A DNA stretch of 64,000 nucleotides from Gammaproteobacteria bacterium (GTDB taxonomy: Bacteria; Pseudomonadota; Gammaproteobacteria; Eutrophobiales; Eutrophobiaceae): contig OZ244890.1 in assembly GCA_965221455.1 (NCBI GenBank), forward strand, positions 2,142,290 to 2,206,289, written 5' to 3'. The notes beneath the pieces were generated by a model, which had not been told where the DNA came from, ran no database searches, and saw only the letters and a program-made list of their open reading frames with translations. The translations under genes were made by a program, and so were the position numbers. The first letter of the stretch is position 1, and every line of letters starts with the position of its first letter. Below, piece after piece: positions 28,921 through 57,692 of the stretch.

Positions 28921-29180
28921 CTCACACTCTCATCACTCAAAAGAGAAAGGTACGAAACCCTGAAATGATACGCAACGCATCGTTTGCAATCGTGGGTGGT
29001 GATAGTGACCCAAATCAGGCTAAAATCCGTCCATGGGATATGCACTGTTAAAGGAAAAACCGCCTCTAGGGCCAAAAGTAGCTCCTCGGCCAAAAACGGC
29101 AATGGAGCGAGCCGGAGAGCGTTGGTTTAGCAGGGAAAAGTCGCATCTTAAGCTAGGATGCGCGTCAGTTGAAGTAGTTC
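28921..29180 (+). repeat. Leader element fused to orphan Rhs (homolog at 57491-57692, minus)
   Basis: TCACACTCTCA...AGG.ACGAAA.CC...ATGGGATA.GCACTGTTAAAGGAAAAACCGC...CGTTGGTTTAGCAGGGAAAA...GTT, then Rhs. Confidence 0.75.
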
Positions 29181-29773
29181 ACCCAGACCATCTGGGGACA
29201 CCGCAGAAGATAACCAATCAGGCACAAGCGACTGTATGGGAAGCGACGTATACGCCGTTTGGGAAAGCGACGATTACCACTAGTACGATTACGAATAATC
29301 TGAGGTTCCCCGGCCAGTATTACGATCAGGAAACGAATCTGCACTACAACTTAAACCGTTATTACGATCCTCAACTCGGAAGATATATTACCAGTGACCG
29401 TATAGGACTTGCTGGTGGCATGAATAGCTATGGCTATGCACTACAAAATCCGATTAGGTATGTTGACCCGGATGGGCGTATTCCGATACCAGTGTTTACC
29501 GGGGCAGCAGGTGCTATTGGTGCTTTCATAGGCACTGCATCTACTGGTGGTAGCCCAAGGGAGATTATTCGGGCTGCTGTCATCGGCGGTTTGGCGGGTG
29601 CTGGCGCAGGTTTGGGATTAGCATTTGTACCTGGTGCTGTTGCTGGCACCATCACCACACCGGGGATTACACAGGCCATTACTGGTATTTTGGGTGGAGT
29701 GTTGGGTAATACCCTGAACGGACTGGACTTGGTGTCACAGGTTATGGGAGCAGAGCCAGATGAGTGCCAGTGA
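29033..29773 (+). CDS. Orphan Rhs C-terminal cassette A1 (Gly-rich hydrophobic tip)
   Basis: HPDHLGTP...LRFPGQYYD...YVDPDG, then tip IPIPVFTG...[12 protein letters not shown]. Confidence 0.8.
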   Translation: MGYALLKEKPPLGPKVAPRPKTAMERAGERWFSREKSHLKLGCASVEVVHPDHLGTPQKITNQAQATVWEATYTPFGKATITTSTITNNLRFPGQYYDQETNLHYNLNRYYDPQLGRYITSDRIGLAGGMNSYGYALQNPIRYVDPDGRIPIPVFTGAAGAIGAFIGTASTGGSPREIIRAAVIGGLAGAGAGLGLAFVPGAVAGTITTPGITQAITGILGGVLGNTLNGLDLVSQVMGAEPDECQ

Positions 29774-30104
29774 ATCCTGGCAAACCAGAGGTATACAGCT
29801 ACTCTATCTTTGGGCCTATATCAATCTGTTGTTGTATATGGTCTATGCTGTGTCCCTGATCATGGGCTGGGCAGAAGCTTGGGAAGGTGAAGGTGGTGAC
29901 TGGCTTGTAATTTTTGGCTGTTTTCTTTTTCCTGGTTTAGGAATTTTTGCCTTATGGGCGCGTAATGAGTTTGATTGGGTGACCCTGGAGCAAGGTGGTC
30001 AGGTTGGGCTGTTCAGTCGTGCTATCTGGATATCTATGGGTACAATGATGAATATAGGAAGCAGTTATATCTACTGGCGGGATACCTTGCCTTTGTTTAA
30101 GTAA
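29760..30104 (+). CDS. Putative membrane immunity protein A1
   Basis: Overlaps the tip stop; 3 TM segments; paralog of 47507-47848. Confidence 0.75.
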   Translation: MSASESWQTRGIQLLYLWAYINLLLYMVYAVSLIMGWAEAWEGEGGDWLVIFGCFLFPGLGIFALWARNEFDWVTLEQGGQVGLFSRAIWISMGTMMNIGSSYIYWRDTLPLFK

Positions 30105-30142
30105 ATCGTTCTCTGGTTTTGTAACCTTCCCCAACTTAGATA

Positions 30143-31029
30143 TGTAACCCTCCCCAAAAATAGTCTCATGCAAGATGTTGTGATTTTGTTCATACCAGAG
30201 AGAGACAGGAGAACAAAATGCAACCGAAGACATTTAGCGAAAGCCAGATATTCAAGATACTGAAAGCAGCAGAAAACGGACGTGCAGTAAAAGATTTATG
30301 CCGAGAATATGGCATGAGCGATGTGAGTTTTTATCGCTGGCGTTCCAAATATGGCGGTATGGAATTAGCTGATATCCGCCGCATGAAAGAACTGGAGAAA
30401 GAAAACAATCAGCTTAAGAAAATGTTTGCCGATTTGAGCCTGGAGAATACCGCCCTCAAAGACCTTATCGAAAAAAAGCTCTGAGTGTAGATACCAAAAG
30501 AGAAAATATTTTGTATCTTCACCAAACCCACAAGTAGAGTATTCGGCAAGCCTGTTTGGCCTTGCAGTTGAGTCGCTCAGTGTATCGTTATCAGCCCAAA
30601 CCCAGAGACGATACGCCGCTGATTGATGGGCTATTAGCACTGCTGGAACAATATCCACGTTTTGGGATTAAAAAGCTGTTCATTCTGTTGAGGAAACAAG
30701 GCCATGGCTGGAATCATAAGCGCGTGTATCGGGTTTACTGCCAATTGGGACTTAATCTGAAACGGCGCACGAAAAAACGATTGCCGGGTCGGTATCCCCA
30801 AGTACTGGCCATCCCGGCATCAGTAAATCAATGCTGGTCGATGGATTTTATGAGTGATTGTCTCTACGACGGCCGTCGATTCCGAACACTGAATATTGTC
30901 GATGACTTCAACCGAGAAGTCCTGGCCATTGAAGTTGATTTGAGTTTAACGGCTGAACGCGTGGTGCGTGTGCTGAATCGACTCAGTGAATGGCGTGGCT
31001 TACCTCAAGCGATTCGTGTTGATAATGGC
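30143..31029 (+). mobile_element. IS3-family (IS407-like) copy 1, 3'-truncated, orfB fused in frame to Rhs
   Basis: IRL TGTAACCCTCCCC; orfA 30218-30484 intact; A6G slippery site; TAG early in the orfB frame; WSMDF...RVDNG junction. Confidence 0.88.
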
Positions 31030-56554: not shown

Positions 56555-56582
56555 AATTTCATCTGGATTTCCTGTTAGTTTC

Positions 56583-56915
56583 CTAAAGCCCAAAAACATC
56601 TAAAAGGTATATACTAAATACGCCGATGACAGGTAGAAATATAATCATTTGAAAGGTCTTGTAACTGATCTTGAAGGTAGTTTTTTCGTTCTCAAACATC
56701 TCGGTATACATCCAATGACCCCATATCATGGGAATGAATACAAGACAAAGCCCAGCAATTATAGAAATCAGCAAAGGTTCATTTTCATTTAAGAAGGCAA
56801 AAAAAGTGAATAGTCCATTGGCAATACAAAAATACAGCTTATAGGTAGCGACTTGATAGCCATCGGCCTTACGCTTCTGTACGAAAATAACGGTGGCAAT
56901 GCAACAGATAATCAC
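56583..56915 (-). CDS. Putative membrane immunity protein E
   Basis: Multi-TM; downstream of tip E. Confidence 0.7.
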   Translation of the reverse strand: MIICCIATVIFVQKRKADGYQVATYKLYFCIANGLFTFFAFLNENEPLLISIIAGLCLVFIPMIWGHWMYTEMFENEKTTFKISYKTFQMIIFLPVIGVFSIYLLDVFGL

Positions 56916-56959
56916 ATAGACAAATAATTGCCAAGAACCGGGGGCGATCTGAATGATAC

Positions 56960-57637
56960 TTACTCGCAGTTATTTGGTTCGTCTTCTTGACAATTAGGCG
57001 CGTCAGGATTGAGCAAACAGAACTGGCGTTGGATTTGTTCACTGACAGGATCCAGACTATTAGCACTAGGCAAAGGAACAGGTAAAACAGGATCGAAGCC
57101 ACCCATCTCCTCTGCACCGGCACCTACAGCAGTATTCAGTAGTAGATCCAGACCAATCCCCAGACCCGTTGCAATGCGGCTGCTGCCCCCACCAAAACCT
57201 GCAACAAAACCACTAGCGAGTCCAAAAGCACCGCCCTCAAGGCCAGCATAAAACGAAGCTATTGGATCACGTGTCACACTGAAGGTACCAACAAATGCTC
57301 CAAAACCACCACCAACTGCACCAGCTGCAGCACCCGTCAAAGGATTTAAGGCAATACTCCCATCTGGGTCAACATACCTGACAGGGTTTTGCAGTGCATA
57401 GCTATAAGTATTCGCACCCCCAGCAAGACCTATACGGTCACTGGTGATATATCTTCCGAGTTGAGGATCGTAATAACGGTTTAAGTTGTAAACAATTAGA
57501 CCTGATGCGGACTCTGGATCAGATTGCGGTTTTTCCCTGCTAAACCAACGGTCTGCGGCGCGTTCCGTTGCCGTTTTTGGAGAGGAACTTAAATTTTGCC
57601 CTAGAAGCGGTTTTTCCTTTAACAGTGCGTATCCCAT
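56960..57637 (-). CDS. Orphan Rhs cassette E with leader-derived N-terminus
   Basis: YNLNRYYDP...DPDG-SIALNP...[32 protein letters not shown]. Confidence 0.78.
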   Translation of the reverse strand: MGYALLKEKPLLGQNLSSSPKTATERAADRWFSREKPQSDPESASGLIVYNLNRYYDPQLGRYITSDRIGLAGGANTYSYALQNPVRYVDPDGSIALNPLTGAAAGAVGGGFGAFVGTFSVTRDPIASFYAGLEGGAFGLASGFVAGFGGGSSRIATGLGIGLDLLLNTAVGAGAEEMGGFDPVLPVPLPSANSLDPVSEQIQRQFCLLNPDAPNCQEDEPNNCE

Positions 57638-57692
57638 AGGTCGCTATGATAACCCAGGTTTGGCTTTCGTGCCTACCCTAGTGAGAGTGTGA
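57491..57692 (-). repeat. Second leader element
   Basis: Homologous to 28921-29180. Confidence 0.72.

Follow-up and report, generated by a model that had tools for sequence, protein, structure and literature searches.

The 64,000-nucleotide stretch considered here (G000:C1:2142290-2206289, hereafter the window) lies within the complete 2.50 Mb genome of a gammaproteobacterium of the family Eutrophobiaceae, and it holds two copies of a short leader element, A on the forward and B on the reverse strand. Each leader opens a reading frame that continues into the C-terminal end of an Rhs core, which is followed by a variable tip and then by a small open reading frame (ORF) for a hydrophobic protein (Table 1). 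The resulting fusions, ORF A (29033-29773, 246 aa) and ORF B (57637-56960, 225 aa), enter the Rhs sequence at different positions, A at HPDHLGTP and B at YNLNRYYDP, and both lie behind a defence-type operon, a ThsB-like gene set in the case of A and the PDC-M49A/B pair in the case of B. Both points had been made in a preliminary description of the locus, which went on to read the leader as a recombination end or non-autonomous element that captures Rhs 3' ends, and both hold.

The leader core

A repeat search pairs 29033-29182 with 57488-57637 over 150 nt at 77% identity, and MAFFT aligns the two as well, so that 28921-29180 (+) and 57491-57692 (-) are indeed diverged homologs as first described. 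The common starting motif TCACACTCTCA is present at 28921 (+) and 57692 (-), with the correction that in copy B it falls in the last codons of the upstream ORF. Conservation 5' of the ATG extends over a subfamily only, and what the whole family shares is the stretch between the ATG and a closing GTT, CTT or TTT, both included. This core is exactly 147 nt (49 codons) in all six intact copies aligned, without insertions or deletions; its frame starts ATG GGA TA(T/C) GCA CTG and meets no stop before the Rhs sequence, and the proposal that each leader supplies an ATG is true of every intact copy. Two GGAAAA(A/G)(C/T)CGC boxes, 81 nt apart, are found in both copies as reported. The sequence GGAAAAACCGC occurs at 29053, 57617 and 57536, which amounts to three matches at one mismatch or fewer against 1.21 expected by chance, and the second box of leader A, at 29134, reads GGAAAAGTCGC. 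The end of the leader had been given as GC(G/A)TCAG-N7-GTT; the TCAG...GTT end is confirmed, and the spacer is N8 in both copies rather than N7.

Table 1. Coordinates of the leader copies and associated features (window numbering unless another position is given)
Feature	Position	Strand	Remarks
Post-recombinase non-coding stretch	27099..27599	+	Hairpin with outer arms 27425-27437/27474-27486, GC-rich inner stem and T-rich tail; left edge of cargo slot A
Cargo slot A	27582..28909	+	ThsB-like TIR gene 27582-28034; transmembrane protein gene 28039-28668; HlyU/DUF6566-like gene 28670-28909
Leader A, 5' part	28921..29032	+	TCACACTCTCA; 57-nt insert with small hairpin AACGAT..ATCGTT; promoter-like element
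Leader A core	29033..29179	+	ATG plus 48 codons, MGYALLKEKP...ASVEVV; boxes at 29053 and 29134; CGTCAG-N8-GTT end
Rhs core end of ORF A	29180..29476	+	Residues 50-148, class J1; residues 73-148 match TIGR03696 positions 1-75
Tip A	29477..29773	+	Glycine-rich, with acidic Cys-containing tail; stop codon included
Presumed immunity gene A	29760..30104	+	114 aa, hydrophobic; overlaps end of ORF A by 14 nt; no Pfam family
Truncated IS3-family copy joined to Rhs core	30142..31029	+	Starts array of seven cores, about 31.0-55.3 kb
IS3-family copy	55352..56554	+	Inverted partner of 60321-61523
Presumed immunity gene B	56583..56915	-	110 aa, hydrophobic; no Pfam family
Rhs core end and glycine-rich tip, ORF B	56960..57490	-	Class J3, entry YNLNRYYDP
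Leader B core	57491..57637	-	49 codons, MGYALLKEKPLLGQN...ASGLIV
Leader B, 5' part	57638..57692	-	Promoter-like TAGGCA-18-TATCAT (57675-57646), end 8 nt before ATG; overlaps last codons of upstream ORF
Cargo before B, PDC-M49 candidate system	57678..60009	-	A 57967-60009, 680 aa, PHP + ATPase; B 57678-58028, 116 aa
IS3-family copy	60321..61523	-	Inverted partner of 55352-56554; pair of 1203 nt, 99% complementary
Xre-type helix-turn-helix gene	62126..62473	-	Divergent from primase gene; related to a 139-aa helix-turn-helix gene of G018
CHC2-zinc-finger primase gene	62613..64000	+	Runs off the window
Leader copy C	2.2 kb past window end		Fused at PGQYFD
Leader copy D	7.3 kb past window end		Frameshifted, fused at PGQYYD; Rhs piece cut by an insertion sequence
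Leader copy E	684.6 kb of G000		Degenerate, without Rhs after it; beside insertion-sequence debris

Distribution of the leader family

The window genome holds five leader copies, A and B in the window and C, D and E outside it, together with one 5' fragment. A genome profile search (nhmmer, with a profile built from four leader copies) recovers all five, four at E values of 1e-38 to 2e-33 and the degenerate one at 9e-8. Among 126 genomes of the family, which here is coextensive with the order, the leader is present in two, the window genome and G018, a metagenome-assembled genome from another genus with five copies; the leader is absent from all 10 genomes of the window genome's own genus. A DNA pattern scan of 185,579 species genomes returned G018 only, peptide-pattern scans added nothing, and none of 23 candidate stretches from IMG/VR encodes a relative. 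One true copy (L021) emerged from a scan of metagenomes, in which a second candidate, L020, is a chance terminator hairpin; L011 in genome G045, another candidate, likewise proved to be a terminator hairpin. Box 1 (GGAAAAACCGCCTCTAGGG) in fact forms one arm of perfect terminator-like hairpins at such unrelated places (L011 1500-1545 in G045; L020), and short matches to the box by itself are therefore not counted as evidence of a leader.

At the protein level, a hidden Markov model of six leader peptides was searched against 1.84 billion (1.84e9) representatives and gave 37 matches at E ≤1e-3, 30 of them at ≤1e-10. Three (P0036-38) were discounted as repeat proteins with matches over short stretches; in all 34 others the leader lies within the first 15 residues of a protein of 57-365 aa, and in none of these 34 is it found inside or on a long Rhs protein. 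Four of ten matches looked up carry the source name 'RHS repeat-associated protein', and all are singletons or pairs from metagenomes. Two different leader-tip proteins, P0006 and P0010, are both recorded on a 6094-nt contig and may share one contig, as do the tandem cassettes of G018.

The leader family is thus real, precise and rare, comprising two species genomes and metagenomes, and full-text searches of the literature turned up no description of such a leader. The idea of a defined, recurrent module is strengthened by the finding of the exact unit in another genus and in metagenomes. By contrast, the notion of a similarity due to chance, or of a fragment with random endpoints that stems from a known gene, insertion sequence (IS) or RNA family, is refuted. 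The degenerate copy E, which lies beside IS debris with no Rhs after it, is the one observation that might have suggested it, and against this stand the E values of the four better copies, the recurrence of the 147-nt unit across genera, its precise ends, and the outcome of family searches. Five leader peptides and two full-length family members matched no Pfam family at E ≤10, and an Rfam search of the leader gave only two small nucleolar RNA matches at chance level (E 1.4 and 7).

The leader as a landmark of a primase/recombinase island

The leader serves as a landmark in the backbone of a family of islands whose basic genes are a CHC2 primase and an XerC-like recombinase. The units of G018 are tandem islands, each of which opens with a reverse-strand 95-aa gene and an Xre helix-turn-helix gene and proceeds through the CHC2 primase, the XerC-like recombinase, a non-coding stretch with a hairpin, the cargo, the leader-tip gene, the immunity gene and a terminator to the next island. 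Copy C of the window genome repeats this order with the recombinase split and the cargo slot empty. The preliminary description had proposed a check for co-occurrence with CHC2-primase and Xer elements, and both genes do lie directly upstream of the leader in three of the four G018 loci read and at copy C. Within this plan the leader separates two slots whose contents are swapped, one for defence or toxin-antitoxin cargo, which extends from the hairpin to the leader, and one for the tip and immunity gene, which extends from the leader and Rhs end to the terminator and backbone. Three G018 copies with RelE/Xre cargo in front of them have the same sequence over roughly the last 820-920 nt before the ATG and over the leader itself, and each bears a tip of its own; upstream of one of these copies there is neither a primase nor a recombinase.

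The recombinase scores 457.8 bits against the XerC-like model NF002331 (cut-off 371) and 126.3 bits against the integron integrase model TIGR02249 (cut-off 265). The window genome holds one island recombinase and one island primase only, and this island may no longer be mobile. Its recombinase is split into ORFs of 94 and 203 aa (L018 400-684 and 735-1346); those of G018 are intact at 336-364 aa.

Module A can be fitted into the same scheme. By blastn the stretch at its left edge, 27099-27599, matches the stretch that follows the recombinase at the window-equivalent position 65761-65933 (84%) and in G018 (L014o 3155-3315, 77%), and module A is therefore seen as what remains, on the right-hand side, of a second island copy whose primase and recombinase are gone. 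The opposite orientation of copy B is attributed to the inverted IS3-family copies, between which the segment 56555-60320 lies.

Rhs ends and the leader-Rhs junctions

Of the Rhs core, members of the family retain only the last 30-100 residues, always including the ..DPIGL..NP....DPxG(L) terminus. The 35 family proteins examined fall into five junction classes according to where the core is entered. J0 (one member, P0035) enters the YD core some 100 residues ahead of the HxDHLG point; J1 enters at H(P/T)DHLG (three members: A, P0004 and P0026), J2 at PGQY(Y/F)D (22 members), J3 at YNxxRYYDP, YYRARYYDP or a variant (eight members including B) and J4 at RYITSDP (one member, P0027). On the 76 positions of TIGR03696 (Rhs_assc_core, cut-off 32.5 bits), ORF A holds 1-75 and scores 91.9 bits, ORF C holds 20-76 and scores 75.3, and ORF B holds 26-75 and scores 62.3; the Rhs sequence itself starts at about profile position 20 in C, 33 in B and 44 in P0027. 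Because these entry positions differ, the junctions are not domain boundaries. ORF A also matches PF03527 (RHS) over residues 50-81 (35.2 bits, cut-off 27.9), and its core end is 79-87% identical to the core ends of the Rhs array downstream. None of the three ORFs contains a full-length core, since NF041261, which describes a YD-repeat shell of about 1200 residues and scores above 2000 bits on complete proteins, gives 78.7, 42.9 and 59.0 bits and is matched only at positions 1157-1261.

The tips beyond the core ends differ, and many are glycine-rich with an acidic Cys-containing tail. The small ORFs that follow are spaced -14 to +44 nt from the tips in eight cassettes, and these hydrophobic proteins are presumed, from position only, to be the immunity proteins.

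All junction classes depart from the leader at exactly nt 147, with neither leftover core residues nor scars, and the junction sequences when read contained no consistent microhomology. Only one rival explanation accounts directly for this fixed exit. It takes the leader to be a site-specific recombination end, att-like or the terminus of a non-autonomous element, which the island's tyrosine recombinase or some other enzyme would join to Rhs 3' ends at varying positions. In keeping with it are the two direct boxes 81 nt apart and the CGTCAG placed 8 nt before the terminal GTT, CTT or TTT, the constraint at the nucleotide level described below, and a recombinase gene 0.8-1.3 kb upstream in four loci. 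There is also one pair of proteins in which identity breaks exactly at the leader end. Residues 50-310 of P0026 equal residues 103-363 of P0039 (261 of 262 identical), and in P0039 this stretch follows a normal core (..GGNIYTM/HTDHLG..). For this one pair, tip exchange with ordinary Rhs genes is apparent from the sequences, and the leader-Rhs joining in P0026, identical to P0039 from the first residue after the leader, may be recent.

Several lines of evidence run counter to a recombination end and leave it rather improbable. In the tandem islands a different tip and immunity gene follow each leader, and a terminator and a 95%-identical backbone come next, so that the leader is internal to the island and not at its boundary. 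No leader-end sequence was found at the other side of the island; outside other leaders, the 9-mers in question turn up about as often as chance predicts. One 9-mer on the reverse strand occurs three times in the tandem islands of G018, where in L016 it was read after the recombinase gene, and has no counterpart in the window genome. The recombinase belongs with the XerC-like enzymes and misses the integron-integrase cut-off, no recombinase lies beside copies A, B, D or E, and the genome as a whole has one island recombinase. Moreover, the leader tails co-vary with the junction class. A leader's nearest neighbour is nearly always of the same class when tails (residues 32-49) are compared, and often of another class when N-terminal halves are, and the classes therefore appear to go back to a few old, co-inherited events. 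P0002 (J2) and P0003 (J3) have identical leader N-halves with different tails and junctions, a pattern that suggests exchange of the N-half by recombination. Two of the earlier proposals thus find no support, namely that the leader is a recombination end or non-autonomous element and that the island's tyrosine recombinase acts on it. The related proposal that the element captures Rhs 3' ends stands in part, in that five classes share the same exit base and the P0026/P0039 identity breaks at that base, and it falls short in that the classes look like old events rather than capture still under way. In its strongest form it would make the leader a capture-and-express platform, a fixed DNA end joined precisely and repeatedly to 5'-truncated Rhs ends, so that cage-dependent Rhs cargo would become self-expressed toxin/immunity modules with no need of a type VI secretion system (T6SS), carried on the primase/XerC-like island next to an exchangeable anti-phage slot, which we consider a doubtful proposition.

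The nesting of the junctions along the core, from about 100 aa before HxDHLG through HxDHLG, PGQY and YNxxRYYDP to RYITSDP, invites another explanation, in which an ancestral full-length Rhs gene began with the leader as its own native start and the short forms arose by nested internal in-frame deletions. The YD repeats retained by P0035 are as expected under such a history. It would nevertheless require every deletion to begin at the same leader base; none of the 34 true matches among the 1.84 billion representatives exceeds 365 aa, and the seven long cores of the window genome all lack the leader. We accordingly think it improbable that the leader had this origin.

A different N-terminal module was met next to one of the leader cassettes. 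On contig 15 of G018, a 246-aa short Rhs-CT (L017 5467-6207, reverse strand) bears what reads as a Sec-type signal peptide, fused as ..NIYYV to HNDHLGTP, five residues before the J1 point, and is followed by a 122-aa ORF that reads as Sel1-like. This is another N-terminal module, unrelated to the leader, attached to a shortened Rhs end.

Constraint on the leader: peptide or nucleic acid

Sixteen leaders share seven invariant residues (M1, L6, K9, G13, W31, K36 and S45), and the leader always occupies the extreme N-terminus of its protein. Its frame is also maintained, as judged from the absence of stops in frame 1 in seven of eight DNA copies, the broken copy D being the exception; frame 2 contains 3-5 stops and frame 3 contains 0-3. 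These features would suit a leader whose 49-residue peptide is the functional part, for example a trafficking, packaging or docking signal for a route other than the T6SS. Such a route would be in keeping with the complete 2.5 Mb genome, in which TssC (PF05943), PAAR (PF05488) and Hcp (PF05638) have no matches, VgrG not being among the markers searched. That N-terminal export modules on cut-down Rhs ends do occur is evident from the G018 short Rhs-CT with its likely signal peptide. AlphaFold2, run with a 33-sequence alignment, predicts a single leader helix at residues 23-32 (block 21-30 at a predicted local distance difference test, pLDDT, score of 83).

Most of the leader is nevertheless predicted with low confidence (mean pLDDT 54.5), no Pfam family covers it, and the helix segment is absent from part of the family. 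The type II leaders (copy D, three G018 copies, P0034 and P0035) replace the ..SARERAASRW.. middle, and with it the ERAxxRW helix segment, by unrelated basic sequence, and they retain both boxes, the W codon, CGTCAG and the length. Variable columns are distributed 29/28/27 over the three codon positions, that is, without third-position excess, and pairs of type-I leaders differ non-synonymously at 19-31 of 49 codons and synonymously at only 1-8. Where a residue is conserved, its codon differs in 67 of 324 cases (0.21) in the leader against 246 of 489 (0.50) in the adjoining 45-codon Rhs end, in a comparison of 15 pairs drawn from the same six genes, whose sequences are related and whose pairs are not independent. 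The pattern suggests that the leader peptide is loosely constrained, and that the conserved blocks are constrained as DNA or RNA and the open frame as a frame. A functional peptide signal, which would be compatible with the expression module favoured below, thus appears somewhat unlikely.

What the conserved blocks might form was also considered. RNAalifold, applied to seven leaders, gave 8 pairs at -4.36 kcal/mol and no convincing structure. Readings of the boxes as slippery heptamers, CsrA sites or IHF sites were dropped by eye, these not being common to all copies.

A promoter-like element abutting the start codon

A consensus scan places a promoter-like element, GTGATA-16-TAAAAT (28999-29026), with its end 6 nt before the ATG of leader A, and leader B has its own at a similar distance (Table 1). 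A -10-like hexamer, TAnnnT, starts at -14 to -12 and so stands 6-8 nt before the ATG in seven of nine copies, against 4.5% at random genome positions; the remaining two have GATAGT and TGAAAT at this place. A Shine-Dalgarno-like motif within 18 nt of the ATG is present in none of the nine. The simplest reading is that the transcript probably starts at or beside the AUG and is a leaderless mRNA. The suggestion that the element may allow expression of orphan tip/immunity pairs is matched by the in-frame ATG and the abutting -10-like hexamer.

Parts of this upstream region recur elsewhere in the genome. The 5' untranslated part of leader A, with what read as the first few leader codons, is found again at 1.4725 Mb, and a shorter piece at 1.4741 Mb; both sites carry the 5' part of leader A without its ORF. 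The palindrome AACGATACGCAACGCATCGTT within this part (window 28960-28985) recurs at L003 1500-1525 and 3015-3040, and the two repeats at 1.4725-1.4741 Mb flank about 1.5 kb of reverse-strand ORFs without Rhs. Contigs from two of three sequencing runs examined carry leader A together with 12 nt of Rhs, too short for bridging, and the B form is present in the same runs.

A proposed self-contained expression module for mini-Rhs cassettes

With moderate confidence, we favour a reading of the leader as a self-contained module that serves stand-alone mini-Rhs toxin/immunity cassettes both for expression, probably leaderless, and as a recombination anchor, and that probably lets each toxin/immunity pair be expressed on its own. 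Transcription would start at or beside the ATG, and ribosomes would then arrive at the immunity gene, which lies close behind, by translating leader and tip; because they must pass through both to get there, selection would keep the frame open and not the residues. The nucleotide boxes would serve regulation or translation. Tips and cargo would be exchanged by homologous recombination, with the leader N-half and the Rhs end as anchors, and the five or more junction classes would go back to a small number of old events, in-frame fusions or deletions, with later spread.

Certain observations sit awkwardly with such a module. The number of promoter-like matches per region is no higher than in shuffled sequence (1 versus 1.5, and 2 versus 1.5), and for this reason the evidence for a promoter is taken to be the shared position of the element in otherwise unalignable upstream DNA. 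Two copies, D and the one on G018 contig C35, start at or over the stop codon of hicA, and these could instead be translated by coupling. The scarless exit of all junction classes at the same base has no place in the proposed mechanism, and the conservation of box 2 and CGTCAG, which lie 100-136 nt inside the ORF, is not accounted for. Finally, with neither T6SS markers nor a full-length Rhs gene in the genome, the role of the tips is left unexplained.

Relation to known systems

Rhs tips are usually seen either as payloads of a full cage delivered by a secretion system or as silent orphans that await recombination, and the silent orphan rhs-CT/rhsI modules of Salmonella are described as having no translation start of their own. 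Orphan modules of this kind, and the 'C-terminal displacement' of Rhs tips, were reportedly described by Jackson in 2009 and Koskiniemi in 2014. The leader cassettes resemble these orphans in that the core end is 5'-truncated, the tip varies and an immunity gene lies next to it, in forming arrays and in exchange with full Rhs genes via the conserved core end. They differ in that the ATG is conserved in all copies and opens a maintained frame, as part of a dedicated start module (-10-like box, ATG and 49 codons) joined at a fixed base, and in their situation on a primase/XerC-like island beside a defence slot, in a host without T6SS markers or full-length Rhs. Some Rhs orphans are transcribed, and integrase-like genes near Rhs loci 'might facilitate transfer and recombinatorial capture' (PMC5727410); the passages of that article consulted mention no conserved start module.

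Three further comparisons are instructive. The platform of an integron consists of Pc and attI, with short attI-encoded leader ORFs that aid translation of the cassettes, and the present leader is similarly a constant upstream platform that gives promoterless variable cassettes a start of transcription and translation, with a tyrosine recombinase nearby. Unlike an integron, it has no integron integrase, its partners belong to one gene family entered at different internal points, and exchange looks homologous; no attC-like element was noticed in reading the sequences after the immunity genes, which hold a terminator or IS ends, no attC-directed search having been made. In the defence hotspots of P4-like satellites and islands, variable anti-phage or toxin-antitoxin cargo lies between conserved backbone sequences beside genes for an integrase and a primase. 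The arrangement here is alike in these respects and differs in its backbone and in having the start of a polymorphic-toxin gene as the right flank. Polymorphic toxins, in turn, carry N-terminal trafficking modules such as PAAR, LXG, MuF or signal peptides. The leader shares with them a short, conserved N-terminal position before a pre-toxin segment and a variable toxin, and departs from them in its 49 residues of mostly low predicted order, in the lack of a Pfam family and in being conserved more in DNA than in peptide.

The picture that results is one of cut-down Rhs ends that possess their own likely promoter and start codon and reside on a mobile island, next to a slot in which anti-phage genes accumulate. 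If correct, it would show how tip/immunity pairs stay expressed and move between genomes, it would link interbacterial toxins with defence islands, and it would provide a compact natural example of a leaderless expression unit.

Cargo, backbone hairpin and the Rhs array

Cargo slot A contains a gene with matches to PF08937 (29.5 bits, cut-off 21.2) and to ThsB in PADLOC (1.6e-9), together with a PF10115 match in the slot. A Thoeris system pairs a ThsB TIR protein with a ThsA effector; the two genes adjoining the ThsB-like gene have no match in PADLOC. The two overlapping genes before leader B are both recognized by PADLOC as PDC-M49, A at 7e-302 and B at 2.1e-35. Beyond the primase gene at the window's end lie the split XerC-like recombinase, the hairpin stretch, leader C (class J2), its immunity gene and PDC-S06, and further on a HicB/HicA pair and leader D. 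The PDC-S06 gene, for an AAA_13 ATPase (L018 3306-5561, forward strand, 9.9e-156), directly follows the immunity gene of copy C. Elsewhere in the family, a HicBA pair directly precedes the leader on G018 contig C35, as it does at copy D, the fourth G018 locus has DUF2441 cargo, a small transmembrane ORF comes before the leader in L021, and copy E follows a long ORF among genes that read as cytochrome-c-maturation-like. The island also contains HicAB pairs and a PD-T4-6-like Ser/Thr kinase gene (window 25298-26182, reverse strand, 8.5e-66), and the region from about 25 to 73 kb in window numbering lies between molybdenum-cofactor genes, as named from their translations.

The hairpin after the recombinase probably acts as a terminator, given the GC-rich stem and T-rich tail that make it terminator-like in copy A. 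It was located at L018 1973-2033, window 27425-27486 and L014 (oriented) 3226-3290. The 13-bp outer arms covary between the genomes (CAACTAAAAACGG/CCGTTTTTAGTTG versus CTGTTTAAAACGG/CCGTTTTAAACAG), and the 35-nt centre is 97-100% identical between the genera, which is very high for a terminator. A dif-like site was considered and rejected, since 13-bp arms and a spacer of at least 21 nt rule it out.

The genome's Rhs sequences are confined to 2171-2209 kb. Apart from the leader cassettes they comprise seven near-identical long cores, all truncated at the 5' end and all without a leader, and this array seems cut off from any known delivery machine. Within it one truncated IS3 orfB recurs three times, always joined at an identical core position (..RVDNG followed directly by TTTTLTYDARRRLL..), in units at 30142-31029, 41410-42296 and 48400-48776 with junctions at 31029/31030, 42296/42297 and 48776/48777. 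The recurrence of one and the same joint indicates that the IS-core unit was duplicated as a block, and the chimeric IS3-Rhs ORFs that it creates, 900-970 aa in length, start inside the transposase.

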